Shown here: positions 6,609-17,028 of the stretch, piece by piece
How positions within the stretch are numbered: position 1 is the stretch's first letter
Layout: the number at the start of each line of letters is the position of its first letter
NCBI GenBank assembly: GCA_903937035.1
Contig: CAIZXS010000005.1
Location: 1-60,745 of the forward strand
Reading direction: 5' to 3'
DNA: 60,745 nucleotides
Origin: an uncultured bacterium
Lineage (GTDB): Bacteria; Patescibacteriota; Minisyncoccia; Moranbacterales; UBA2206
Notes under the pieces: generated by a model
What the model saw: only the letters and a program-made list of their open reading frames with translations
The model's database searches: none
What the model was told of the DNA's origin: nothing
Made by a program: the position numbers and the translations under genes

Positions 6609-8588
6609 TCAAATCAGGCGATTTCCTCCTTGCTTTTTCCCAAATGTTCCACGTGGAACATTTGCGTGGAACAATTTCCATAAAAACAGAATAAACAAAA
6701 CCAACCCAACAATCCCCCATTCTGACCAAATTAAAAGAAAAACATTATGCACAGGCTGATATTGCCAGATCTCGAGATTTGAAAATAGCCTCTCTGTGGT
6801 CATAATAAACTGACCCGTACCAACTCCAATAATCGGATTATCTGCAATGATTCGCTCTGAGATAGACAAATACAAACCCCTTTCCACGATTGACTTCACA
6901 AATAAAGCGTAAAATTCAACTCTAAGAAAAAACAATCCTGTCAATACGGCCAGTCCCAAGGCAAGTAATATCCTAAAATGTTCCACGTGGAACATTTTTT
7001 TTAAACTAATCCGCCTAATTGTTCCACGTGGAACATTTATGTATGCAAAAGCTATGACCAGCGCTAGGACAGCTGCTTTGGAAAAAGAAAGAATTATCCC
7101 AACAGCTTGAATCGCCAGAACGAGTTTGATTAAGCTCAATCCAATTGTTCCACGTGGAACATTTGGGATAGTTTTATTCCTCAAATTGTTCCACGCCTGC
7201 CCGCCGGAGCTTTGGCGTAGGCTGGTGGAACAATTTGCATTATTTTGCTCATCAAAATGTTCCACGTGGAACATTTTTTTATAAAGCATTGTCACTATGA
7301 TTGAAAAAAACAAAAATCCACCCAAAAGATTGGGATGCGGAAATAAGCCATAGGCTCGAATTACGGGGTGATAATTAACGACAATCTTTGCCACTCCGGG
7401 AATATCTTGTCCAACTAGGCTTTCTTTGAGGGAAAATAGTCCAAGCGAGTGCTGAACGACAAATTGAGCAATTCCAATCAAGGATTGCACGACACCAATA
7501 AGCACGATAATAGCAAAAAGAATACCCAGGACATTAAATGTTCCACGTGGAACATTTTCAGTATTTTCAAGTCGCAAATTGTTCCACGTGGAACAATTTC
7601 CTGGGCTAGGATATTTGACGAAACCAAAACCTGCTAAAATACCACAAATTAACCAAAATAAGACTTGACCTTGCCAGATATCCCACAAATAGTGATCAAA
7701 CAGCGCAATCACTGCAAGACCAAGTAAGATTGCGCGGAAATATTGAACTATTCTCTGAAAAACATAGTTAAATTGTTCCACGCCTGCCTGCCGGAGCCTC
7801 GGCGTAGGTAGGTGGAACAATTTAGCATCATCACCATCAGCTGCATTTGAAAATGTTCCACGCTTGACTGCCAAAGCCCTGGCGTAGGTTGGTGGAACAT
7901 TTTCAACATTTCCAACCCGCAAATTGTTCCACGTGGAACAATCATTTAAAGATAATAGAAAATAGGGCACGAATCTAATAGCAACATAAAGATACACCAG
8001 ATATAGCTCTAGAAATTTAACAGCCCGATAAACACCAATTACTCTACTTTCCGACCAAAAAACTGACGCGAATGACCAAATAACCAACAGAAGGGGAATC
8101 AGAAAAAAACCTGAATAATACAAATTGTTCCACGTGGAACAATTTGTATTATTTTTCTCCGTGGAATGTTCCACGTTTGCCCGCCGAAGCCCTGGCGTAG
8201 GAGGGTGGAACAATTTAGAAAATAATGCTTTAATATAGGCAATTATTCCTATGGATAACTTCTGAGCAAGTAAACTATCCACACTTTTTGTGTAATCTAT
8301 CTTGTGGATAAGTCCTAAGGTGTCATCACTGCCCATTGACTTATTTACTATTTTATTGTATAATATAGATATAAACCAAGCGACAATCGTGAAATACAAA
8401 AATATATCGGAAGCATAAACATATGCGCCGGTATATTCGTTAAAAGCTCCTTTCAAAGGAAGGTACAATATTACCTTTCTGACCCCAAGCGTAAAAGTCA
8501 ATAAAAACAAATAGAAAAACCAAATGTCTTTTGGCTGTTTTTTGGCTTCTTTCCAGATATTCCCCATCTTTTCAGTTAAATTTGCCAT
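6609..8588 (-). CDS. O-antigen ligase/Wzy_C-like polytopic membrane protein containing parS-derived peptide insertions
   Basis: Motifs RAYGLFPHPNLLGG, LSFSKAA, NPIIGVGTG and PVHNVFLL, with many TM helices. The repeated peptides VPRGT, CSTWNN and FHVEH come from the DNA palindrome. Confidence 0.8.
   Translation of the reverse strand: MANLTEKMGNIWKEAKKQPKDIWFFYLFLLTFTLGVRKVILYLPLKGAFNEYTGAYVYASDIFLYFTIVAWFISILYNKIVNKSMGSDDTLGLIHKIDYTKSVDSLLAQKLSIGIIAYIKALFSKLFHPPTPGLRRANVEHSTEKNNTNCSTWNNLYYSGFFLIPLLLVIWSFASVFWSESRVIGVYRAVKFLELYLVYLYVAIRFVPYFLLSLNDCSTWNNLRVGNVENVPPTYARALAVKRGTFSNAADGDDAKLFHLPTPRLRQAGVEQFNYVFQRIVQYFRAILLGLAVIALFDHYLWDIWQGQVLFWLICGILAGFGFVKYPSPGNCSTWNNLRLENTENVPRGTFNVLGILFAIIVLIGVVQSLIGIAQFVVQHSLGLFSLKESLVGQDIPGVAKIVVNYHPVIRAYGLFPHPNLLGGFLFFSIIVTMLYKKMFHVEHFDEQNNANCSTSLRQSSGGQAWNNLRNKTIPNVPRGTIGLSLIKLVLAIQAVGIILSFSKAAVLALVIAFAYINVPRGTIRRISLKKMFHVEHFRILLALGLAVLTGLFFLRVEFYALFVKSIVERGLYLSISERIIADNPIIGVGTGQFIMTTERLFSNLEIWQYQPVHNVFLLIWSEWGIVGLVLFILFLWKLFHANVPRGTFGKKQGGNRLI
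6645..8212. other. parS: cluster of parS-like centromere sites (TGTTCCACGTGGAACA)
   Basis: Nine intact 16-bp palindromes start at 6645, 6979, 7020, 7146, 7258, 7539, 7580, 7925 and 8126. Four copies are split by 30-nt inserts (7187-7232, 7774-7819, 7854-7899, 8167-8212), and there is a half-site at 6665-6673. Matches the widespread parS consensus TGTTNCACGTGNAACA and lies about 51 kb from dnaA. Confidence 0.85.
7195..8204. repeat. four copies of a 30-nt hairpin micro-element inserted in parS centres
   Basis: 7195-7224 GCCTGCCCGCCGGAGCTTTGGCGTAGGCTG; 7782-7811 GCCTGCCTGCCGGAGCCTCGGCGTAGGTAG; 7862-7891 GCTTGACTGCCAAAGCCCTGGCGTAGGTTG; 8175-8204 GTTTGCCCGCCGAAGCCCTGGCGTAGGAGG. Confidence 0.85.
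8250..8311. promoter_or_regulatory. DnaA-box cluster
   Basis: TATGGATAA (8250-8258, 1 mismatch), CTATCCACA (8275-8283, 1 mismatch) and TGTGGATAA (8303-8311, perfect). Confidence 0.5.
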
Positions 8589-8891: not shown

Positions 8892-8963
8892 GCCTTCATA
8901 GCTCAATGGATAGAGCAAATCCGTCCTAAGGATGAGATGTAGGTTCGATTCCTACTGAGGGCA
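8892..8963 (+). tRNA. tRNA-Arg(CCT)
   Basis: Acceptor GCCTTCA/TGAGGGC, anticodon loop GTCCTAA, GGTTCGATTCC. Confidence 0.92.
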
Positions 8964-8974
8964 CATTATGAGGG

Positions 8975-9047
8975 GAGCAAATCCGTCCTGAGGATGAGCT
9001 GTAGGTTCCCTGCCTGCCGGCAGGCAGGGATTCCTACTGAGGGCACA
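8975..9047 (+). pseudogene. partial duplicate of tRNA-Arg with a 20-bp palindrome in the T-loop
   Basis: Near-identical copy of the 3' two-thirds of the preceding tRNA, with CCTGCCTGCCGGCAGGCAGG (9009-9028) inserted at TTC^GA. Confidence 0.85.
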
Positions 9048-9052
9048 AAAAC

Positions 9053-9081
9053 TTGCCAAAACGAAAAAGATGGAGTATACT
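9053..9081 (+). promoter_or_regulatory. sigma70-type promoter (rpsA)
   Basis: TTGCCA-N17-TATACT. Confidence 0.6.
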
Positions 9082-9266
9082 CAATTTACGTTAATTATTA
9101 GGAAAAATGAATAGGGGAATGCTTTAATTCCTGACTTTTCTGCCGAACAAGGCTTTTCTTAGTAATTTCCTCAAACCCAGGAAATTTTTTATTTTTACAT
9201 AAAAGTTTGGACATTTTTTAATTTTTATCCCGTAGCCCTGATGTCAGCTACAAAAAATTTAATCAA

Positions 9267-10643
9267 ATGAACGATATACTCTCAAAATTAGCAACAGAAG
9301 TCGACAAATTGAGTGATGAAAAGACAGTTGCGCCAGTAACCACAGCAAAAGCAAACGAAAAAACAGCCAACGAAGAAAAGAAGCTTTCTTTTATGGAACA
9401 ATTGCTCCTAGATAACCCAATTGAATTTCCTGCTATTGGCAACACGATTATTGGGACAGTTCTTGAAGTCTCTTCAAGTGAAATTTATCTCGATCTTGGA
9501 CCATTTGGGACAGGATTGGTTTTGGGAAAGGAAATTAAGGATGGAATGGGAACCAATAAGCTAAAAATGGGGGACAAGGTTTCTGCTACTGTGACGGACT
9601 TGGAAAATGAAGAAGGTTATATCGAATTATCTATCCGTGAAGCCTCTTATGAAAAAGCTTGGGAAGATATCGAAAAGAAGAGAAATGCTGGAGACAAAGT
9701 TAAAACTAAGGTTATCAGCGCAAATAAAGGAGGACTACTCATCGAAATCAATGGTATCGCTGGATTTCTACCGGTTTCACAACTTTCCAGCAAGAATTAT
9801 CCTCGCGTTGAGGATGGCGATAAGAACAAAATTCTTAACTTGCTTAAAAAATTGGTCGGAAAAGAGCTTGAAGTTTGCGTGCTCGACATTGACCGTGAAG
9901 CTGAAAAATTGATTGCAAGTGAAAAAGCTGCTCAAAGCGACAAGGAAAAGGAAACTATTTCTAATTTCAAGGTGGGCGATGTCATTTCTGGCGAGATCAG
10001 CGGCGTAGTTGATTTTGGTGCTTTTGTGAAATTTTCTCCAATTAATGAATTTGGCGAAGCCAATGAGAAGGAAAAAGTGGAAGGATTGGTTCATATTTCA
10101 GAATTGGCTTGGCAACTAATCGAAAATCCAAGAACAATCGTGAAAGTAGGGGACAAGGTTGAGGCAAAAATTATCGGAATTGATAATGACAAAATTTCCC
10201 TTTCTATCCGTGCTTTGCAAGCTGACCCATGGAGTGAGGCAACTAATAAATATAAGGTAGGGGATATCGTTACTGGAAAAGTGCACAAAATTAATCACTT
10301 TGGTGCTTTCGTTTATCTAGACAATGATATTCATGGACTTGCACACATCAGCGAAATGCTTGATACGCATCCAGGAAAAAACATCAATGACCTAATCAAG
10401 ACCGGTGATGATTATAGCTGGAAAATACTTTCCATCGAACCAAGAGAGCACCGCATGGGGCTAACTCTAGTTTCTGACAAAGAAAAACCAACCAAAGAAG
10501 TGAAGGAAAAGAAAGTTAAGAAAGAGAAAATTGAAAAAGAAGAAAAAGCAGAAGGGAAAACAGAGGAGACAAGGGAAGAACCAGAAAAACCATTGGAGAA
10601 AAAAGTAAAGAAAGTTGAGAAGGAGAAAAAAGAGAAAGAATAA
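9267..10643 (+). CDS. rpsA: 30S ribosomal protein S1 (four S1 domains, charged tail)
   Basis: S1 repeats GFLPVSQ, DFGAFV..EGLVHISEL and HFGAFV..GLAHISE. Confidence 0.93.
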   Translation: MNDILSKLATEVDKLSDEKTVAPVTTAKANEKTANEEKKLSFMEQLLLDNPIEFPAIGNTIIGTVLEVSSSEIYLDLGPFGTGLVLGKEIKDGMGTNKLKMGDKVSATVTDLENEEGYIELSIREASYEKAWEDIEKKRNAGDKVKTKVISANKGGLLIEINGIAGFLPVSQLSSKNYPRVEDGDKNKILNLLKKLVGKELEVCVLDIDREAEKLIASEKAAQSDKEKETISNFKVGDVISGEISGVVDFGAFVKFSPINEFGEANEKEKVEGLVHISELAWQLIENPRTIVKVGDKVEAKIIGIDNDKISLSIRALQADPWSEATNKYKVGDIVTGKVHKINHFGAFVYLDNDIHGLAHISEMLDTHPGKNINDLIKTGDDYSWKILSIEPREHRMGLTLVSDKEKPTKEVKEKKVKKEKIEKEEKAEGKTEETREEPEKPLEKKVKKVEKEKKEKE

Positions 10644-10679
10644 ATTTAACGTAACAAATTTATTTTTAAAAACTAAAAT

Positions 10680-11237
10680 ATGATCATTACTATTACTGGA
10701 GAACCCGGTAGTGGCAAGAGCACTATTGGGAAAAAGTTAGCTCAAGAATTAGGCTATGACCATTATTATATCGGCCAGATCCGCAGAGACGCTGCAAAAA
10801 AAAGAGGGATGACATTGGCAGAATATAATAAATATGGGGAAACCCACCCCGAGACAGATATTGAAGTAGACGATTATCAAAAAAATCTCGGCAAAGAAAA
10901 AGATAACTTTGTGATTGAGGGGAGAACCAGCTGGTTTCTAATTCCTCATTCCACAAAAATCTATATTACGGTCGATCCAGAAGAAGGAGCAAGGAGAGTC
11001 TTCAAAGAACTTCAGGTAGACAATAATCGCAACGAGGACAACGGACTACTAACATTGACTGACGTACTAAGAAGTCACCGAGAAAGAGAGGCGAGTGATA
11101 TGCTGCGCTATCAGAAGTACTATCAAAAAAATTGTTCAGACAAAAACAACTTCGATTTAATAGTTGACACGACCAAACTAACTCCCAAGGAAGCTTTCGA
11201 CTCAGTTTGGAGCCATATCAAGGAAACAATCAAATAG
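10680..11237 (+). CDS. cmk: cytidylate kinase (archaeal-type family)
   Basis: MIITITGEPGSGKSTI P-loop, AKKRGMTL, VIEGR and DLIVDTT. Confidence 0.8.
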   Translation: MIITITGEPGSGKSTIGKKLAQELGYDHYYIGQIRRDAAKKRGMTLAEYNKYGETHPETDIEVDDYQKNLGKEKDNFVIEGRTSWFLIPHSTKIYITVDPEEGARRVFKELQVDNNRNEDNGLLTLTDVLRSHREREASDMLRYQKYYQKNCSDKNNFDLIVDTTKLTPKEAFDSVWSHIKETIK

Positions 11238-11255
11238 GCCTGCGCATTTATTCAA

Positions 11256-12203
11256 ATGAAAAAAAACCTGATCAAGAAAATCCAAAATTCTATTTTTGCC
11301 AATTCACTTTTTGAAAGAGGCGCAAAAATTATTTTAGGAGTTTCCGGAGGACCAGACTCGACGCTCCTGCTTGATGTATTTTCCAAATTACAAAAGAAAT
11401 ATGCGCTCGAACTTTCCATCGCCCATGTTAATTATCATCTGCGAGGATATGATAGCGAGAGGGATGAGCGCTTTGTGGAAAAGTTAGCGGAAAAATACGG
11501 ATTGTCTCTTGATATTCTCGATGCCCGAATTAAAGAGCAAGATAAATCAGAAGAAAAATTGCGTGATGTTCGTTATGTTTTTTTTGAAGAGCTGCGCAAG
11601 GAAAATAAATTCGACCTGATTGCTGTCGCGCACAACTGCGATGATCAAGCAGAAACGGTTTTGATGCGACTGATTCGTGGAACGGGCCTCAATGGTCTTT
11701 CTGCAATGCAAGCAAGAAACGGAAAAATTATTCGACCATTACTTGAAATTCCGCGCAAAGAAATTATTACATATTTAAAAACAAACAATTTAAGCTACCG
11801 AATCGACAAGACCAATAAACAGTCAATCTATCTGCGAAATAAGATTAGAAATAAATTAATTCCATATCTAGAGAAGAACTATAATCCAAACTTAAAACAA
11901 GTACTTGCAAAAAGTGCCAAAACTTTTGGAGAAGATTCCGCTGTGATTGAAGGGCTGACAAAAAAAGCTTGGCTGGAAAATAAAACATTAAGCGTTAAAA
12001 AAATCCTCGCGCTACCAGTTGCAATTCAAAAAAGAATTTTGCAAAAAGCGTTAGCGCAACTAAGACCCTCTGACACTCATGAGAATTTCACCCAGAGCGA
12101 AGAAATCCTGAAAGCATTGAGAAGCACAAAGAACAAAAACCAGACCGTCAAATGCGCGGGATTGAAAATGACAAGGTATGGTGATAAGATTATATTAGAA
12201 TAA
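11256..12203 (+). CDS. tilS: tRNA(Ile)-lysidine synthetase
   Basis: SGGPDS PP-loop, AHVNY, AHNCDDQAET, IIRPLL and RNKIR. Directly upstream of ftsH as is typical. Confidence 0.95.
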   Translation: MKKNLIKKIQNSIFANSLFERGAKIILGVSGGPDSTLLLDVFSKLQKKYALELSIAHVNYHLRGYDSERDERFVEKLAEKYGLSLDILDARIKEQDKSEEKLRDVRYVFFEELRKENKFDLIAVAHNCDDQAETVLMRLIRGTGLNGLSAMQARNGKIIRPLLEIPRKEIITYLKTNNLSYRIDKTNKQSIYLRNKIRNKLIPYLEKNYNPNLKQVLAKSAKTFGEDSAVIEGLTKKAWLENKTLSVKKILALPVAIQKRILQKALAQLRPSDTHENFTQSEEILKALRSTKNKNQTVKCAGLKMTRYGDKIILE

Positions 12204-12215
12204 TTTTAATATTTA

Positions 12216-12366
12216 CAGGATTTAAACATTTGCCAAAAACAAGCTTTTCTATAGCCAAAGTTGATTGAAAAAATCCTTGATGGTTTCAGGGGTAAGAATA
12301 AGCAAAAGACAAACTCTAAGAAGCCATGCGCTTTAAAGATTGTTTTTGGTAAATGTGTAAATCATA
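12216..12366 (+). mobile_element. MITE-like element, copy 1
   Basis: About 150 bp, aligning with 51197-51345 (shared blocks TTGCCAA.AACAAGCTTTTCTATAGCCAA and GCGCTTTAAAGATTGTTTTTGGTAAA). Degenerate terminal inverted repeats. Confidence 0.7.
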
Positions 12367-12389
12367 ATTCATATAACCAAACAAACTCT

Positions 12390-14285
12390 ATGAAAAATCT
12401 GCTCAGAAACGTTAGCTATGTTTTATTCTTTTTTGTATTTGTTGCGGGCATTCTAATTTTATTCAGTAACCCAGAAAAAAAACCGGAAGAAATTTCACTC
12501 TCCACGCTCGTTACGCAGATTAATGATCAAAAAATAAAAGAAATCACAGTTACGAACGACGAGCTCAGTGTCACTATGGTTGATGGGAAAATTGAAAAAG
12601 CCCTAAAGGAAAAAGAAGCTGGGATTACGGAAACATTCAAAAATTACGGAGTAGACCAGGAAAAGCTGAAAGGGGTTAACATATTAGTCAAAGGAGAGAG
12701 CGCAAGCAGTCTTTGGCTTGGAGCGATCCTACCATTTCTTCTACCATTTCTCTTAATCGCTGGCTTTATTTGGTTCATGCTTCGTCAAGCACAAAGAGGC
12801 AACAATCAGGCACTATCCTTTGGTATGTCCAAGGCACGCGTGTCAGATCCAAAAGACAAAAAGAATCGTGTCGTCTTTAATGATGTCGCGGGAGCGAAGG
12901 AAGCTAAGGAAGAACTCTATGAAATCGTAGAGTTTCTCAAAACTCCCAAAAAGTTTCTTAATCTTGGGGCAAAAATTCCTAAGGGCGTCTTATTGCTTGG
13001 CTCACCTGGAACAGGAAAGACCTTAATCGCAAAAGCAGTGGCAGGCGAAGCTAATGTACCATTTTTCAATATTTCCGGTTCTGAATTCGTAGAGATGTTC
13101 GTTGGAGTTGGCGCCAGCCGCGTGCGTGATCTCTTCAAGCAAGCCAAAAAAAATTCACCAGCGATTGTGTTTATCGATGAAATTGATGCTGTTGGAAGGC
13201 ACCGTGGAGCAGGACTCGGCGGGGGACATGACGAACGCGAGCAAACTTTAAACCAAATTCTTGTGGAAATGGATGGTTTCGACACAAATACAAACGTAAT
13301 TGTTATTGCCGCTACAAACAGACCAGATGTACTTGACCCAGCGCTCCTTCGCCCAGGCCGCTTTGATCGCCGAGTAGTGATGGACCTGCCAGACATTGAA
13401 GAACGCGCAGCAATCCTCAAAATTCATGCCAAAAACAAGCCTCTCGTCAAGGAAGTTGATTTACGCGTTATCGCCCAAAGAACTCCTGGATTTTCTGGCG
13501 CTGATCTATCAAATTTGCTCAATGAAGCTGCCATCCTTTCCGCACGACGTGGCAAAAAAACGATTGGAATGACTGAACTGGCTGAATCAATCGAAAAAGT
13601 CATTCTTGGGCCGGAACGAAAAAGTCGACGCATTGATGAAGAGGAGAAGAAAATCATCGCCTATCACGAGGCAGGCCATGCTCTTGTCGCCGCCACATTA
13701 ACACATGCAGATCCGGTTCAAAAGATTTCCATCATTTCTCGTGGAAATGCCGGCGGATACACACTAAATGCACCAACTAAAGACAAGACACTCCATTCTC
13801 GCAATTATTTCATCGACGAGCTATCAGTCTTTTTGGGAGGCTATCTCAGCGAAAGATTGACCTTTGGCGATATTACAACGGGGGCATCTAACGACCTCGA
13901 AAGAGCAACTGCCATCGCCAGAAATCTCGTTACGCGCTATGGAATGAGCGATCTCGGCCCTCGCACTTTTGGACGTAAAGAAGAAATGGTCTTTTTGGGC
14001 AAAGAAATGCATGAAGAAAAAAATTATTCAGAAGAAACTGCCCGCGAAATTGACAATCAAGTTACAAAATTCATCGCTGATGCCTATAAGGTTGCCGAAA
14101 AAATCCTGATTGATAAAAAAGAACTATTAGACAAAATCTCAAATGTTCTTTTGGAAAAGGAAACCATTGAGCAAGCTCAATTCAATGAAATCATGGGGAT
14201 TGCCCCTGTAGAAAAAAATGAAGAAGAAGTATTTACAGAAAAAATAGAAGACGAAGCCGAGGTTATCGAAGTAAAAACAAATTAA
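12390..14285 (+). CDS. ftsH: ATP-dependent zinc metalloprotease FtsH
   Basis: Two TM helices, Walker [28 protein letters not shown] and HEAGH. Start moved to ATG 12390 because the upstream in-frame stretch is the MITE. Confidence 0.97.
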
Positions 14286-14306
14286 AAATCGAACAACATC
14301 ATATTT

Positions 14307-15302
14307 ATGCCTAATATCGATTATCTAAAAATTTTCCGCGACGCGTGGAAGATCACTTGGAAAAACCGCTTTTTGTGGTGGTTTGGCTTTTTTATGTTAG
14401 CTTCTGGAGGATTGAATTATAACTATTTCTCTTCTGGAAACGAAAAACCGCAGAAAGATTGGCAAGCTTTTACTGAAAAAATTGATTTGCAACAATTCCT
14501 GCTAGAGCACGCCACTCTCATAGCAATCGGACTAACCCTACTGGTTATACTTTTTCTTGTTTTTTTGATTTTAAATTTTATCGCCCGTGGAGCGCTAATC
14601 AAGTCGACGCAGAAAATACTAAAAAAAGAAGTCGCCAATTTCAGCTCCGGTTTTCAGGATGGTAAGAAGTATTTCTGGAAGATACTCTCTATCTTCTTTT
14701 TTTCAGGATTACTCATTTTTATTTGCTTTATTGTGCTTTTTACGCCAATCATTATCTTATTCCTGGCAAAATCCTATGTCATTGGGACAATCCTTGCGAT
14801 TCTCGCGCTAGTAATCGTCATTCCACTACTCATCCTCACAAAATACATCCAGTCTTACGCAGGCTATTACGCTGTTTTGGCCGATTTAAAACCTTGGCTT
14901 GCAGTAGAAAATGCCTATGCTCTTTTCAAGAAAAACATACTGGCCAGCATAATTATGTCTCTACTCTTCATTCCCATTGGAATTCTTTCAATTTTTATTG
15001 CTATAGCGATTATACTAGTGACCATCATTATTTTTGGTCTCATTGGTTTGGCCCTATTTTTCGCCATAAAAGACACGGGCGTGATTATCGCCGTCGCACT
15101 AGGACTGATATTTTTCATTCCCGCAATAATTCTTTTCTATTCAATATTTAGCACATTTTCTGAAGTTGCCTGGGTTTTGTTTTTTCATGTTATTGCAACG
15201 CCAAAAGAAAAAGAAAAGATTGTTGAAAAAATCTCAGAAGAAGAAAAATCTACAATTTTGCCCGCAACGGAAACGATAAAAACAGCTGAGATTGATGAGT
15301 AG
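14307..15302 (+). CDS. polytopic membrane protein of unknown function
   Basis: Multiple hydrophobic helices; N-terminal AWKITWKNRFLWWFG. Confidence 0.75.
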   Translation: MPNIDYLKIFRDAWKITWKNRFLWWFGFFMLASGGLNYNYFSSGNEKPQKDWQAFTEKIDLQQFLLEHATLIAIGLTLLVILFLVFLILNFIARGALIKSTQKILKKEVANFSSGFQDGKKYFWKILSIFFFSGLLIFICFIVLFTPIIILFLAKSYVIGTILAILALVIVIPLLILTKYIQSYAGYYAVLADLKPWLAVENAYALFKKNILASIIMSLLFIPIGILSIFIAIAIILVTIIIFGLIGLALFFAIKDTGVIIAVALGLIFFIPAIILFYSIFSTFSEVAWVLFFHVIATPKEKEKIVEKISEEEKSTILPATETIKTAEIDE

Positions 15303-15304
15303 TT

Positions 15305-15333
15305 TTGACGGGGATTGTTTTTTACGGTAGGCT
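15305..15333 (+). promoter_or_regulatory. sigma70-type promoter of second tRNA cluster
   Basis: TTGACG-N17-TAGGCT. Confidence 0.55.
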
Positions 15334-15362
15334 AAATAAGTATTTTGGCCCATAGTTCAGTC

Positions 15363-15480
15363 TCACTCCACACCATTTTTTGGGTCTGTAGCTCAGTTGG
15401 TTAGAGCGCTACATTGACATTGTAGAGGTCTCCAGTTCGAGTCTGGACAGACCCACCGTTTTAAAAATGGTGTGGAGTGA
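15363..15480. repeat. perfect 18-bp inverted repeat enclosing tRNA-Val(GAC)
   Basis: TCACTCCACACCATTTTT (15363-15380) and AAAAATGGTGTGGAGTGA (15463-15480). Confidence 0.85.
15382..15455 (+). tRNA. tRNA-Val(GAC)
   Basis: Acceptor GGGTCTG/CAGACCC, anticodon arm CTACA-TTGACAT-TGTAG, T-arm TCCAG-TTCGAGT-CTGGA. Confidence 0.93.
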
Positions 15481-15481
15481 A

Positions 15482-15556
15482 GTTAGAGCGCTACATTGAC
15501 ATAGTAGAGGTTTCAGAGGTTCCCTGCCGGCAGGCAGTGAGTCCTCTCACACCCAC
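15482..15556 (+). pseudogene. decayed tRNA-Val-like copy with a palindromic insert in the T-loop
   Basis: GTTAGAGCGCTACATTGACATAGTAGAGG..AGAGGTTC[CCTGCCGGCAGGCAGT 15523-15538]GAGTCCTCTCACACCCAC. Confidence 0.75.
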
Positions 15557-15565
15557 AAATAAAAA

Positions 15566-15641
15566 GGGACCATAGCTCAGCGGTTAGAGCAGGAAACTCA
15601 TAATTTCTTGGTCGCTGGTTCGAATCCAGCTGGTCCCACCA
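15566..15641 (+). tRNA. tRNA-Ile2(CAT) (lysidine-modified; elongator Met less likely)
   Basis: Cloverleaf with CTCATAA loop and encoded CCA. The body TAGCTCAG.GGTTAGAGCAGG..ACTCATAAT...TTGGTCGCTGGTTC closely resembles known bacterial tRNA-Ile2. Confidence 0.85.
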
Positions 15642-15655
15642 TATTCACTATTCAT

Positions 15656-15689
15656 TTGGTCGTCCCGCCGAGGCAGGGCTGGTCTCACA
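15656..15689 (+). pseudogene. remnant of the tRNA-Ile2 3' end with the T-arm replaced by a small palindrome
   Basis: TTGGTCGT-CCCGCCGAGGCAGG-GCTGGTCTCACA versus parent TTGGTCGC-TGGTTCGAATCCA-GCTGGTCCCACCA. Confidence 0.55.
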
Positions 15690-15756
15690 AATTCAAAAAA
15701 ACCACTAAATTAATTAGTGGTATTTTCATATAATCCCTTAAGTAATACTGTAGTGG

Positions 15757-16092: not shown

Positions 16093-17028
16093 CTATTTTT
16101 TTCTCCTCGAATGAAACGCCTGATGTACCTCCTTTAGCTGTTTATTGGTAACATGTGTATAAACCTGCGTTGTCGTAATCGACGAATGTCCAAGCATCGC
16201 CTGCACGGAGCGAATATCGGCGCCGTTAATCAATAAATCAGTTGCAAAAGAATGACGCAGGGTGTGGGGATGGACATCTTTCACGATCCCAGCTTTCACG
16301 GCATAGTATTTTACGATTCTTTGGATTGATCTTGGCGTTAACCTCAAGTTATCCACAGTTTTTTTGGCATTTTTGCCTTCAAATTTCTTTAGTCCAGCAA
16401 CATCTCGCACAAAAAGCGCCGAATCAGTGTCTATTCGCTTGTCTAGATATCGACTTATTGCCTGAGAAGCAGAATCAGAGATGAACACCACGCGCACTTT
16501 ATCCCCCTTACCTCGCACACTAAGCTCTTGCCGCTTAAGATCAATTTTCTCGCGATTAATACTGGTCAATTCAGAAACTCGAAGACCAGCAGAAAACAAT
16601 AGCTCTAAAATAGCTCGATCACGCAAACTTTTTAGATCTTGCCCGCCTGCCTGGGAAAGAATTCGCTCTACCTCTTCCATTTCCAAAAAATCCACCTCTC
16701 GCGTTGACGACCTACCAATTTCAATTTTCTCGGCCTGCAAGGACTTTATATCTCTTTTAGCTAAAAATTTCAAAAAACCACGAATTGCAATCACATAATA
16801 GCTTTGGGTAATTTTTTTAAGCTTTTGACCATTTGCATCTTCATAGCGATTAAGATAAATACGAAAGTTCCTCACAACTTCAGATGTAATTTGCTCAGGC
16901 TTGGAAATTTTTGACCATTCCAAAAAACGCCTGAGGTAGTGATCGTAATTTTCAATTGTTTTCTGAGAACGACCCTTCTCAATCTCTAAATGCTCCAGGA
17001 ATTGAATCTCAAGTTCTTTGATTTGCAT
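16093..17028 (-). CDS. XerC/XerD-family site-specific tyrosine recombinase
   Basis: SAM-like N-domain (SQKTIENY), GLRVSEL, GKGDKVR, HTLRHSFAT and LGHSSITTTQVY (R-K-H-R-H-Y). Confidence 0.92.
   Translation of the reverse strand: MQIKELEIQFLEHLEIEKGRSQKTIENYDHYLRRFLEWSKISKPEQITSEVVRNFRIYLNRYEDANGQKLKKITQSYYVIAIRGFLKFLAKRDIKSLQAEKIEIGRSSTREVDFLEMEEVERILSQAGGQDLKSLRDRAILELLFSAGLRVSELTSINREKIDLKRQELSVRGKGDKVRVVFISDSASQAISRYLDKRIDTDSALFVRDVAGLKKFEGKNAKKTVDNLRLTPRSIQRIVKYYAVKAGIVKDVHPHTLRHSFATDLLINGADIRSVQAMLGHSSITTTQVYTHVTNKQLKEVHQAFHSRRKK

Follow-up and report, generated by a model that had tools for sequence, protein, structure and literature searches.

Introduction

In one study, the integrative elements that target transfer RNA (tRNA) genes span 9–121 kb, carry an integrase, and leave one 3′ fragment of their target behind (bioRxiv 10.1101/2022.07.05.498093). 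The inserts dealt with in this study lie in a contig of an uncultured member of the Moranbacterales (Patescibacteriota) and are of two kinds: a cassette of ∼120 bp, which holds a complete tRNA gene between inverted repeats, and a perfect 20-bp palindrome, CCTGCCTGCCGGCAGGCAGG, designated PAL in the following. The stretch analyzed, referred to as the window, comprises positions 1–60745 of contig C5 (CAIZXS010000005.1) of a genome of 1,222,898 bp (26 contigs, ∼40% GC); the sequencing runs that contain it are labelled lake-water or freshwater metagenomes. As with the integrative elements of that study, the target is a tRNA gene, a working tRNA is restored, and a dead partial copy is left; unlike with them, the inserted piece measures 10–200 bp, can hold a whole tRNA between inverted repeats, resides in a D-, anticodon, or T-loop, and leaves both halves of the target (bioRxiv 10.1101/2022.07.05.498093). 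With some reserve, we favor the view that two independent processes meet at these genes, replacement of the tRNA gene and insertion of PAL.

Several described systems resemble one or the other of the two. Mitochondrial GC clusters and repetitive hairpin-forming elements are, like PAL, tiny GC hairpins that invade AT-richer genomes at intergenic and tolerant RNA-gene sites and are scattered among relatives; they are organellar and lineage-specific in sequence, whereas PAL is bacterial, keeps one sequence across phyla, and prefers TC^GA (where ^ marks the point of insertion) and loops (PMC2800124). PAL also shares with REP/REPIN sequences and IS200/IS605-derived elements the short GC-rich palindrome, the dozens of copies, the variability between relatives, the lack of target duplication, and the link to single-strand hairpins. 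REP/REPIN sequences are imperfect palindromes with a 5′ GTAG, mostly arranged as inverted doublets and associated with the RAYT (Y1 HUH) transposase; IS200/IS605 elements have guide sequences, subterminal hairpins, and the transposase TnpA. PAL differs from REP/REPIN in being a perfect 20-mer that starts with CCTG, without a 5′ GTAG (GTAG occurs only inside one wobble variant) or guide sequences, and in crossing phyla with identical sequence. It is, unlike REPIN, mostly solitary, the inverted doublet being seen only where PAL lies in both hairpins that flank a GIY-YIG gene. With IS200/IS605 it has in common that no target is duplicated and that insertion occurs 3′ of a short sequence (TC^), but PAL is a single 20-nt hairpin without left- and right-end hairpins or guides, and no TnpA is present in the genome.

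The palindromic elements of Rickettsia, about 100–150 bp long and confined to one genus, resemble the 30-nt relatives of PAL at window positions 7140–8200, which lie in frame, in that palindromic inserts are tolerated inside genes. Free-standing GIY-YIG homing endonuclease genes, such as that for SegB of phage T4, are known from tRNA gene regions. A linkage of nuclease and tRNA genes, and a spread that resembles allele replacement between related genomes, recur here; unlike in the homing systems, the nucleases are bare UPF0213 domains of ∼85–115 amino acids that lack a DNA-binding extension and are bounded by inverted repeats, and the tRNA cassettes come without a nuclease gene. The two elements are probably undescribed: in the literature searched, which did not cover subscription journals, no description of them in bacteria was found; nothing was retrieved for the 20-mer, and its 12-mer turned up only in papers on zebrafish nf1.

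Results

Order of events at the tRNA-Val(GAC) locus

The genome has 42 tRNA genes and a transfer-messenger RNA; five of the tRNAs lie in the window, on which ARAGORN and Rfam agreed. A note drawn up earlier from the letters of the window had described three broken tRNA copies with GC-rich inserts. All three were recovered in place with ARAGORN, blastn-short, and sequence inspection, behind live tRNA-Arg(CCT) (8892–8964), tRNA-Val(GAC) (15382–15457), and tRNA(CAT) (15566–15641). For comparison, 41 related genomes of the order (∼1 Mb each; G-numbers below) were used, with the Val/CAT locus displayed for 12 genomes of the genus. The Val(GAC) locus of the window is built as follows.

15347-15361 (+): 5′ portion of the former resident tRNA-Val(GAC) as far as the D-loop, decayed; better kept in G011 and G008, intact as a single gene in G001
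15362-15481 (+): inverted-repeat cassette in the D-loop of the old gene, consisting of left repeat (15362-15381), live tRNA-Val(GAC) (15382-15457), and right repeat (15458-15481)
15482-15522 (+): 3′ part of the old tRNA-Val(GAC), from the D-loop to TTC of the T-loop, equal to the intact allele of G001
15523-15538 (no strand): decayed PAL, CCTGCCGGCAGGCAGT, 16 nt (4 nt shorter than the 20-mer and with 1 alteration), interrupting the T-loop of the dead copy at TTC^GA
15539-15556 (+): rest of the T-arm and acceptor 3′ strand of the old tRNA-Val

The stretch 15482–15511 matches positions 19–48 of tRNA-Val in 29 of 30 bases (97%; blastn-short). The cassette repeats, CTCACTCCACACCATTTTT and AAAAATGGTGTGGAGTGA, form an inverted pair of 18–20 nt, and the cassette as single-stranded DNA folds into one long stem (z −9.4); the nested arrangement of this tRNA-Val(GAC) had escaped the earlier note. 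Its ends are not identical (..CTTG-CCCC.. and ..GGGG-TGAA..). Two bases of the target were replaced, not duplicated: TG in the D-loop of Val and, on the other strand, CA in the anticodon loop of Glu (see below).

Several states of this locus are preserved among the relatives. G001 has a single, uninterrupted tRNA-Val(GAC), which is identical in sequence to the outer copy of the window and represents the empty site. In G011, the cassette lies between ..AGCTCAGT and GTTAGAGCG.. of the old Val gene, and the outer T-loop, GGTTCGAGTCC, is intact and free of PAL. G008 contains the cassette and, at TTC^GA of the outer copy, a 20-nt PAL with one mismatch; the window has the cassette together with the 16-nt PAL, and G006 has the cassette next to a heavily decayed outer copy. 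Single, different Val alleles are present in G005, G013, G012, G010, and G002. Since G001 is empty, G011 has the cassette without PAL, and G008 and the window have both, the alleles show that the nested tRNA cassette killed the old gene first and that PAL entered the dead T-loop second. This runs counter to the idea that the palindrome drove the duplications. The outer parts do not behave as exons of a spliced tRNA with an archaeal-type intron either: both here and in G006 the outer copy shows decay, and PAL has been inserted into it (no search for a splicing endonuclease gene was made).

That the cassette has been used again in another Val gene is likewise evident on alignment. In G001, the repeats and the tRNA body of the Val(GAC) cassette recur in the neighboring Val(CAC) gene, which they interrupt at the equivalent D-loop position; between the inner tRNAs there are two differences, one in the first base of the anticodon (GAC to CAC) and the other in the T-loop, and the outer parts of both loci equal the respective resident alleles. 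The dead outer Val(CAC) T-loop of G001 also holds a GC hairpin and is the third such locus; the window's own Val(CAC) is uninterrupted. The order of the Ala-Val-Arg cluster varies as well: Val(CAC) is missing between Ala and Arg in G011 (locus L008), G004, and G005, and in G003 (L005) tRNA-Arg has a 3′ end resembling that of Val(CAC) behind it, as would result from insertion of Arg into a Val T-loop.

tRNA fragments and nested tRNA genes across the genome

Each tRNA of the genome was locally aligned with its two flanks of 400 bp, and the threshold was set at a score of 15.0, below which 99% of the comparisons with non-cognate tRNAs fell. A cognate fragment within 400 bp was found for 12 of the 42 tRNAs, compared with none (0/42) for reversed queries; partial copies at loci other than the three first noticed are thus confirmed. 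Two more short cases, Asp(GTC) and the tRNA(CAT) remnant, were below the threshold and recognized by eye. Copies of the 3′ part were seen for Arg, Leu(GAG), Ile(GAT) (twice), Gly (twice), and Asp, and copies of the 5′ part, lying upstream, for Lys(TTT), Thr(TGT) (twice), and Gln(CTG). Glu(TTC), Tyr, and the window's Val(GAC) have the live tRNA between the 5′ and 3′ parts of an older copy.

One family of inverted repeats flanks the live tRNA in all three nested cases (..CCCCACACCAATTTT and AAAATTGGTGTGGGG.. for Glu; TCCCTCACCAATTT and AAATTGGTGAGGGA for Tyr, which is nested in the T-loop). The Glu cassette has the same ends as the Val cassette, with the tRNA in the opposite orientation; it is nested in the anticodon loop in this genome and in G011, and a single tRNA in the same flanks, i.e., the empty site, is found in G004, G003, and G005. 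Empty and filled alleles were, accordingly, seen among relatives at the Glu, Val(GAC), and Val(CAC) loci.

Two genomes from other families of the order, G034 and G038, have a tRNA-Ala(CGC) cassette that interrupts the anticodon loop of a tRNA with the acceptor pair G3:U70. This pair marks tRNA-Ala identity, and the interrupted, outer tRNA is therefore taken by us to be tRNA-Ala. Running ARAGORN on the outer tRNA after excision of the cassette was tried and dropped: any anticodon could be obtained by shifting the cut by 1–2 nt, and since the anticodon depends on the position of the cut, G3:U70 was used instead. G034 has an intact tRNA-Glu(TTC) elsewhere in the genome. Cargo and interrupted gene agree in amino-acid identity in the five or six independent cases observed.

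The T-loop of the live tRNA-Glu(TTC) (C12:64178-64250) reads TCCGACT, with C at position 55, as it does in seven relatives of the genus (L069-L076). TTCGACT is found instead in G005, in G001, and in the dead outer Glu 3′ half of this genome; to our knowledge, U55 is nearly universal in T-loops. A conserved element of 150–200 bp separates a complete tRNA from a 3′ remnant that starts in the T-loop at C11:18696-18859 and C11:53328-53521 (Gly(TCC) and Gly(GCC)), and the same type of element, without an Rfam match, occurs behind Glu in G007 (L072), G001 (L070), G006 (L077), and G008 (L075). G001 has two of these elements in tandem, the second with a PAL-like insert. When eight own and related tRNA loci, including these ∼200-bp T-loop elements, were searched with Rfam, nothing beyond tRNA was found except two sub-threshold matches to Plastid-ycf2 that lie on tRNAs.

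Distribution and insertion sites of PAL

The 12-mer core of PAL, with up to two mismatches, matched the window seven times (0.73 expected; at most three in 100 shuffled sequences). With the same tolerance, the 20-mer was found in 32 of the 41 genomes of the order, in 0–91 copies (91 in G011, 55 in G019, 40 in G023, 27 in G030, 26 in G040, 24 in G001, and 15 in this genome); nine genomes have none, and the reversed sequence was absent from all 41. A collection with one genome per species gave at least 123 stretches with an exact match to the 20-mer, where a random 20-mer would, by rough estimate, give a few hits at most. Among the matches listed are several groups of Patescibacteria, Bacteroidota, Omnitrophota, Planctomycetota, Bdellovibrionales, proteobacterial metagenome-assembled genomes, Thermodesulfovibrio, and Chloroflexi; among them are also cultured Bacteroidota (Winogradskyella, Flagellimonas, Longitalea, and Flavivirga), on contigs of 0.4–1.0 Mb. 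Another 40 stretches with the exact 20-mer are from viral contigs. Judged from its sequence context and distribution, PAL behaves as a mobile insert, i.e., like a minimal non-autonomous element, scattered over many phyla.

For the statistics of insertion, 196 sites were collected, sites within 20 nt of the end of a locus and overlapping matches being skipped, and two duplicates were removed, which left 194 non-redundant sites. A target duplication of at least 4 nt was seen at five of them (null mean 1.5, maximum 7), i.e., the target is not duplicated. TC^ was the commonest half-site (71 of 388, compared with ∼6% if dinucleotides were equally frequent), and T at −1 and A at +1 were rare (18/194 each). 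A stem of at least 5 bp flanks PAL at 19.1% of the 194 sites, compared with 4.7% in 200 flank swaps (sd 1.5, maximum 11.9%), which bears out the earlier idea that the palindrome inserts repeatedly and with some preference for hairpin loops. Clean insertion relative to a known empty sequence was observed in the Val T-loop (G011 compared with G008) and in a repeat, GTCATTCCCGCG..GGCGG^GAATCCAG (four filled copies). Elsewhere, PAL lies at exact palindrome centers, in other PAL copies, in tRNA D-arms and a T-loop of other Patescibacteria, and in the variable loop of a tRNA-Met from a viral contig.

When three mismatches were allowed, this genome had 20 copies, the decayed Val copy falling below the threshold. 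Four lie in the repeat just mentioned, three in a second one, GTCATCCTGAGCG..CGAAG^GATC, three in a triple-hairpin repeat, two in tRNA remnants (Arg and the D-loop of the outer Tyr), and eight elsewhere. With 17 of the 20 copies listed located outside T-loops, specificity for T-loops, as proposed earlier, was not upheld. What did hold is that, in tRNA T-loops, the palindrome was observed in dead copies only: none of the 20 copies of this genome lies in one of the 42 live tRNAs, whereas two of the six dead copies with a full T-arm hold PAL (Fisher p ∼0.013, by hand arithmetic).

The triple-hairpin unit (..CTCTCCC-TTYG-GGAGAG, PAL, GATGTC..GAC-GGTGAGGG) contains PAL at C4:71134, C11:5633, and C11:16054 and occurs without it upstream of Val(GAC) in relatives (L223, L224, and L226), which looks like another filled/empty pair. 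A second palindrome family of 16 nt, TCCGCC(A/G)GCTGGCGGA, has eight copies in this genome (C16:23979, C19:10090, C19:26472, C20:50440, C22:5832, C24:19654, C6:5495, and C3:23641; loci L093 and L098), some of them at the centers of local hairpins, and adjoins PAL in records from other phyla. In the window, positions 7140–8200 contain a cluster of 16-bp palindromes, TGTTCCACGTGGAACA (putative parS sites in the earlier note), at least four of which are split exactly at the center by hairpins of ∼30 nt that start like PAL (CCTGCCTGCCGG..) and have G:T pairs inside (e.g., 7783-7812 and ∼7196-7225). The cluster lies wholly inside an open reading frame (ORF) of 659 amino acids with a Wzy_C domain (6609-8588, minus strand); the 30-nt inserts are thus in frame.

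The tRNA-Arg(CCT) locus

8892-8964 (+): live tRNA-Arg(CCT) (ARAGORN; Rfam tRNA, 62.3 bits)
8965-8974 (+): 10-nt filler between the live tRNA-Arg and the dead copy; related fillers in G001 and G008
8975-9008 (+): dead tRNA-Arg copy, tRNA positions 22–55 (D-stem 3′ strand to TTC of the T-loop), 32 of 34 bases identical (94%; blastn-short)
9009-9028 (no strand): PAL, perfect 20-bp palindrome CCTGCCTGCCGGCAGGCAGG, exactly at TTC^GA of the dead T-loop, without target duplication
9029-9046 (+): dead tRNA-Arg copy, tRNA positions 56–73, 18 of 18 bases identical, running on into the original downstream flank

As single-stranded DNA, PAL is predicted to stack on the T-stem of the dead Arg copy (z −3.6). 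An insert at the identical place of the dead Arg T-loop is also present in G001, G008 (with 2 of 20 bases changed), and G011. In the 12 loci displayed, the combination of copy and PAL occurs in G001, G008, and the window; in G006 and G004, a single tRNA-Arg is directly followed by the flank aaaaacttgcc that lies downstream of the window's dead copy, and six further loci are without copy. G011 has a different tRNA-Arg(CCT) allele (shared with G007 and G017), followed by 11 nt and then only GGTTC, PAL, and GATTCCTACTGAGGGCAC of the first allele, which would again be a replacement that left a scar.

Contigs from other samples show that the unit of copy and PAL varies even between close strains. 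A second sample of the study that yielded this genome gave a contig covering 8725-9088 with zero differences, and one from a different study, 95% alike, holds the Arg copy with the palindrome variant CCTGCCTGCCGTTAGGCAGG, as in G008. In a contig from a third study, 2.4 kb of flanking sequence is identical, yet 8947-9028 is missing (82 nt, with an ambiguity of 19 nt), so that one clean tRNA-Arg results; near-identical strains thus differ by the whole unit. This difference is due either to loss via the 18-nt direct repeat or to an empty allele. Gaps in contig cover over 8962-9033 in runs X4 and X7 were not counted as evidence; only the X4 contig joining across the gap was used.

The tRNA(CAT) remnant and a second class of hairpins

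15566-15641 (+): live tRNA(CAT), called Met(CAT) by ARAGORN (also Rfam) and labelled Ile2 in the earlier note
15656-15689 (+): tRNA(CAT) 3′ remnant, consisting of variable-region bases (TTGGTCG, 15656-15662), a GC hairpin of 16 nt in place of the T-arm (TCCCGCCGAGGCAGGG, 15663-15678), and the acceptor 3′ strand (CTGGTCTCACA, 15679-15689)
15701-15721 (no strand): bidirectional terminator-like hairpin closing the tRNA cluster (terminator-like site call)
16093-17028 (−): tyrosine recombinase with Phage_int_SAM_1 and Phage_integrase domains (Xer-type pair; domain search), given for context only

The earlier note had counted the hairpin of the tRNA(CAT) remnant as the same insert. This does not apply: the 16 nt stand for a T-arm of 15 nt, and the hairpin, to judge from its sequence, belongs to a different, shorter, and older class than PAL, which replaces the T-arm and does not interrupt it. 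The greater age is suggested by the spread of the remnant, which eight of the 12 displayed genomes of the genus have (G005 has it twice) and four lack, with a hairpin that varies in sequence among genomes (e.g., G001). In this genome, the hairpin is mismatched, and its fold is no better than that of shuffled sequences (z 0.12).

Hairpins of the form CCGC[C/G]-N2-7-[C/G]GCGG occur 30 times in the genome, five of them within 400 bp of a tRNA, inside the remnants of Lys, Asp, Leu, and two Ile(GAT). Members of this second class replace 7–15 nt instead of adding to the target, namely, the T-arm (Asp and tRNA(CAT)), the 5′ strand of the anticodon stem (Lys and Ile(GAT)), or part of the variable arm (Leu).

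Inverted repeats, GIY-YIG genes, and transposases

The repeat motif of the cassettes matches this genome 24 times, always in pairs, compared with one match for the reversed motif. In G009, the repeat, including the terminal TGAA, encloses a GIY-YIG ORF of 85 amino acids, which matches UPF0213 proteins with structures in the PDB (1ZG2 and 1YWL, labelled hypothetical); in G026 and G021, too, GIY-YIG matches lie between paired repeats. The other two hairpin repeats in which PAL is found likewise flank small GIY-YIG genes, in G030 and on contig C13 of this genome. Two of its four small GIY-YIG genes are found in the context of tRNA fragments, one (C4) between two tRNA(CAT) genes and one (C23) between two 3′ copies of tRNA-Ile(GAT), and in G034, five of the seven listed GIY-YIG matches are within 300 bp of a tRNA match (hand count). 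The window's tRNA cassettes contain no nuclease gene. Across the 41 genomes, PAL counts correlate more closely with GIY-YIG counts (Spearman 0.61) than with Y1 counts (0.37), which, given the relatedness of the genomes and the inclusion of UvrC in the counts, is only a hint. These contexts make the UPF0213 nuclease a candidate mobilizer of the cassettes.

Compared with miniature inverted-repeat transposable elements, the cassette has terminal inverted repeats in common with a GIY-YIG-coding partner, and a target-site duplication of fixed length is lacking (the cassette replaces 2 nt and PAL none); for PAL, a coding partner with shared ends was not found. A link of PAL to RAYT or IS200 transposases was considered and given up as the first choice: Y1-like ORFs above the family cut-off are present in 24 of the 41 relatives, with PAL inside the locus of ∼3.3–4 kb in one of the 12 examined, and this genome has no such ORF. 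Ten of the 32 PAL-bearing genomes have no Y1 match.

About ten intergenic elements of 95–126 bp have conserved inverted ends of ∼30 nt (ATCCCCCACCACTTTTTCGCTCGC..), which resemble the repeats of the tRNA cassettes, and unrelated interiors (e.g., C12:19546-19662, C21:29493-29613, C18:10341-10464, and C5:137312-137431). One arm ends ∼10 nt before the next start codon, and such an element could thus mask the region of ribosome binding. A 16-mer of the ∼110-bp intergenic repeat gave 58 single, unpaired matches in viral contigs and was set aside as uninformative.

Discussion

The anatomy of the loci, the filled and empty sites, and the spread of PAL are as observed above; the enzyme and the strandedness of the intermediate we infer. 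In the first of the two processes, a resident tRNA gene of this lineage would repeatedly be overwritten by a small incoming piece that supplies either a whole tRNA with matching amino-acid identity or only the 3′ part of one. The piece would land in the D-, anticodon, or T-loop and leave dead 5′ and/or 3′ fragments beside the live gene. A nuclease of the UPF0213 type may cut the target, the cargo tRNA keeping the host alive; bare GIY-YIG nucleases would then mobilize repeat-bounded mini-elements into exposed loops, and the tRNA cargo would do for them what splicing does for an intron. In the second process, PAL would insert without target duplication at TC^GA-like sites, favoring hairpin loops and palindrome centers, for which the T-loop sequence GGTTC^GAnTC would be an ideal target; since insertion into a live tRNA would kill the cell, PAL would last only where it had struck a dead copy. 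It is conceivable, though we consider it rather doubtful, that repeat-bounded bare UPF0213 GIY-YIG nucleases form an undescribed class of mobile elements that home into single-stranded loops of DNA able to form hairpins, chiefly the D-, anticodon, and T-loops of tRNA genes, with non-autonomous members carrying a complete replacement tRNA, which would let them reside in an essential gene and the anticodon of which can be retuned to a new isoacceptor target (GAC to CAC), and with PAL as the smallest member, two 10-nt arms without cargo, spread through many phyla and viruses.

A number of observations weigh against this reading. No enzyme is tied to either element: none of the four small GIY-YIG genes of this genome lies inside cassette repeats, no Y1 transposase (PF01797) was detected, and only two tyrosine recombinases are encoded, of which that in the window has the Xer-type domain pair. 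The correlation between PAL and GIY-YIG counts may only reflect overall repeat load. A flanking stem of at least 5 bp is missing at about 80% of the PAL sites; with most sites stemless, hairpin targeting is a tendency, not a rule. At Arg(CCT), a dead copy without PAL was found in none of the genomes displayed, and the live gene has kept its original 5′ flank, with no inverted repeats flanking it; the origin of the Arg copy, like that of the tRNA(CAT) copy, is one that we infer. The conservation of the tRNA(CAT) remnant could mean function instead of a scar. Finally, the Glu cassette is shared by this genome and G011 and the Val PAL by this genome and G008, which is not obviously tree-like.

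The reverse order, in which PAL hits the T-loop of a live tRNA and only cells that have or quickly gain a second copy survive, so that the duplications exist because of the palindrome, would fit the presence of PAL in every dead Arg(CCT) copy (this genome, G001, G008, and G011). A hit might, moreover, be briefly survivable, because the Arg(CCT) and Val(GAC) codons might be covered by other isoacceptors in the tRNA list, as wobble is commonly understood. We nevertheless regard this order as very unlikely: the outer T-loop next to the Val cassette of G011 is untouched and the old gene of G001 intact, several dead copies have no PAL (the Glu halves, the two 5′ copies of Thr(TGT), and the Leu and Ile copies), and once PAL was removed, a full tRNA was called at no more than 2 of 242 PAL sites. 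A somewhat better, yet still improbable, candidate is site-specific integration of phage- or island-like elements in the anticodon or T-loop, by which the 3′ part of the tRNA would be duplicated, with interiors deleted later and the GC hairpins as remains of element ends. Fragments of tRNA genes from such integration have been described (bioRxiv 10.1101/2022.07.05.498093). Copies of the 3′ part that start in the anticodon region or the T-loop are the classic pattern, elements of 150–200 bp do lie between a full tRNA and a T-loop-truncated remnant (Gly here, and Glu in relatives), and the gene for a tyrosine recombinase is located ∼400 bp from the Val/CAT cluster. Against this speak the nested whole tRNAs with inverted repeats (Glu, Val, Tyr, and Ala) and the 5′ fragments (Lys, Thr, and Gln), which are not products of such recombination. 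The Gly, Ile(GAT), and Leu copies do directly repeat the 3′ part of their tRNA from the anticodon loop or T-loop onward; the nested Val, Glu, and Tyr cases and the 5′ copies do not. No island separates tRNA and copy in the genus loci displayed at Val/CAT (the spacers in the window measure 10–25 nt), no integrase of an element was found beyond the two tyrosine recombinases, of which the window one is Xer-type (serine recombinases were not searched), and PAL occupies many sites outside tRNAs and in other phyla. The earlier suggestion of scars of integration and excision thus holds only loosely: scars they are, but of the insertion of tRNA cassettes of ∼110–120 bp and of pieces of 10–200 bp, and not of integrase-borne islands.

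That the pseudo-tRNA pieces are kept as functional RNA (processing signal, 3′ stabilizer, decoy, or terminator) is suggested by the position of the dead Val and CAT copies between the tRNAs and the terminator at 15701-15721, so that they are probably co-transcribed, by the tRNA(CAT) remnant being kept in most genus genomes displayed while its hairpin varies in sequence, and by G:T pairs in some hairpin variants, which fit the fold of one strand only. This is hard to reconcile with the decay of outer copies (window, G006, and G008), with the hairpin of the tRNA(CAT) remnant folding no better than chance in this genome, with the near-identical strain that lacks the whole 82-nt Arg copy and PAL, and with the lack of Rfam matches. 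PAL lacks a run of T behind it, and a terminator-like site was called at neither PAL of the window. We consequently give this explanation little credit. An artefact of assembly or library construction, with the palindrome chimeric or adapter-like, could account for one identical 20-mer in assemblies from many laboratories and phyla; orthologous copies decay, however (2 of 20 bases in the Arg copy of G008, and 16 nt left at Val in the window), the palindrome is present in independent assemblies and on the long contigs of cultured isolates, and its insertion points are exact relative to known empty sites, so that an artefact appears to be next to impossible.

Replacement of tRNA genes and separate insertion of PAL, if true, would mean that, in very small genomes, selfish cassettes overwrite essential tRNA genes present in a single copy and supply the substitute themselves, which would be a route to turnover of tRNA alleles, and even to anticodon switching, between species. 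One 20-bp palindrome common to distant phyla and viral contigs would call for a common mechanism of insertion, and the widespread UPF0213 GIY-YIG proteins, for which structures are solved and no function is known, would gain a testable role. In metagenome-assembled genomes, the annotation of tRNAs will be misled by such fragments and inserts, which could also be of use as strain markers of fine scale.

Further observations

Apart from tRNA, no Rfam family matched the window. In a word screen of six metatranscriptome runs, 5–8% of the sampled words were found. A leader hairpin, GCGGGCTTGCCCGC, precedes the two Gly tRNAs and the Trp and Pro tRNAs (C11:18560-18622, C11:53175-53254, and C17:46350-46420), and its first bases repeat the tRNA 5′ end GCGGG.

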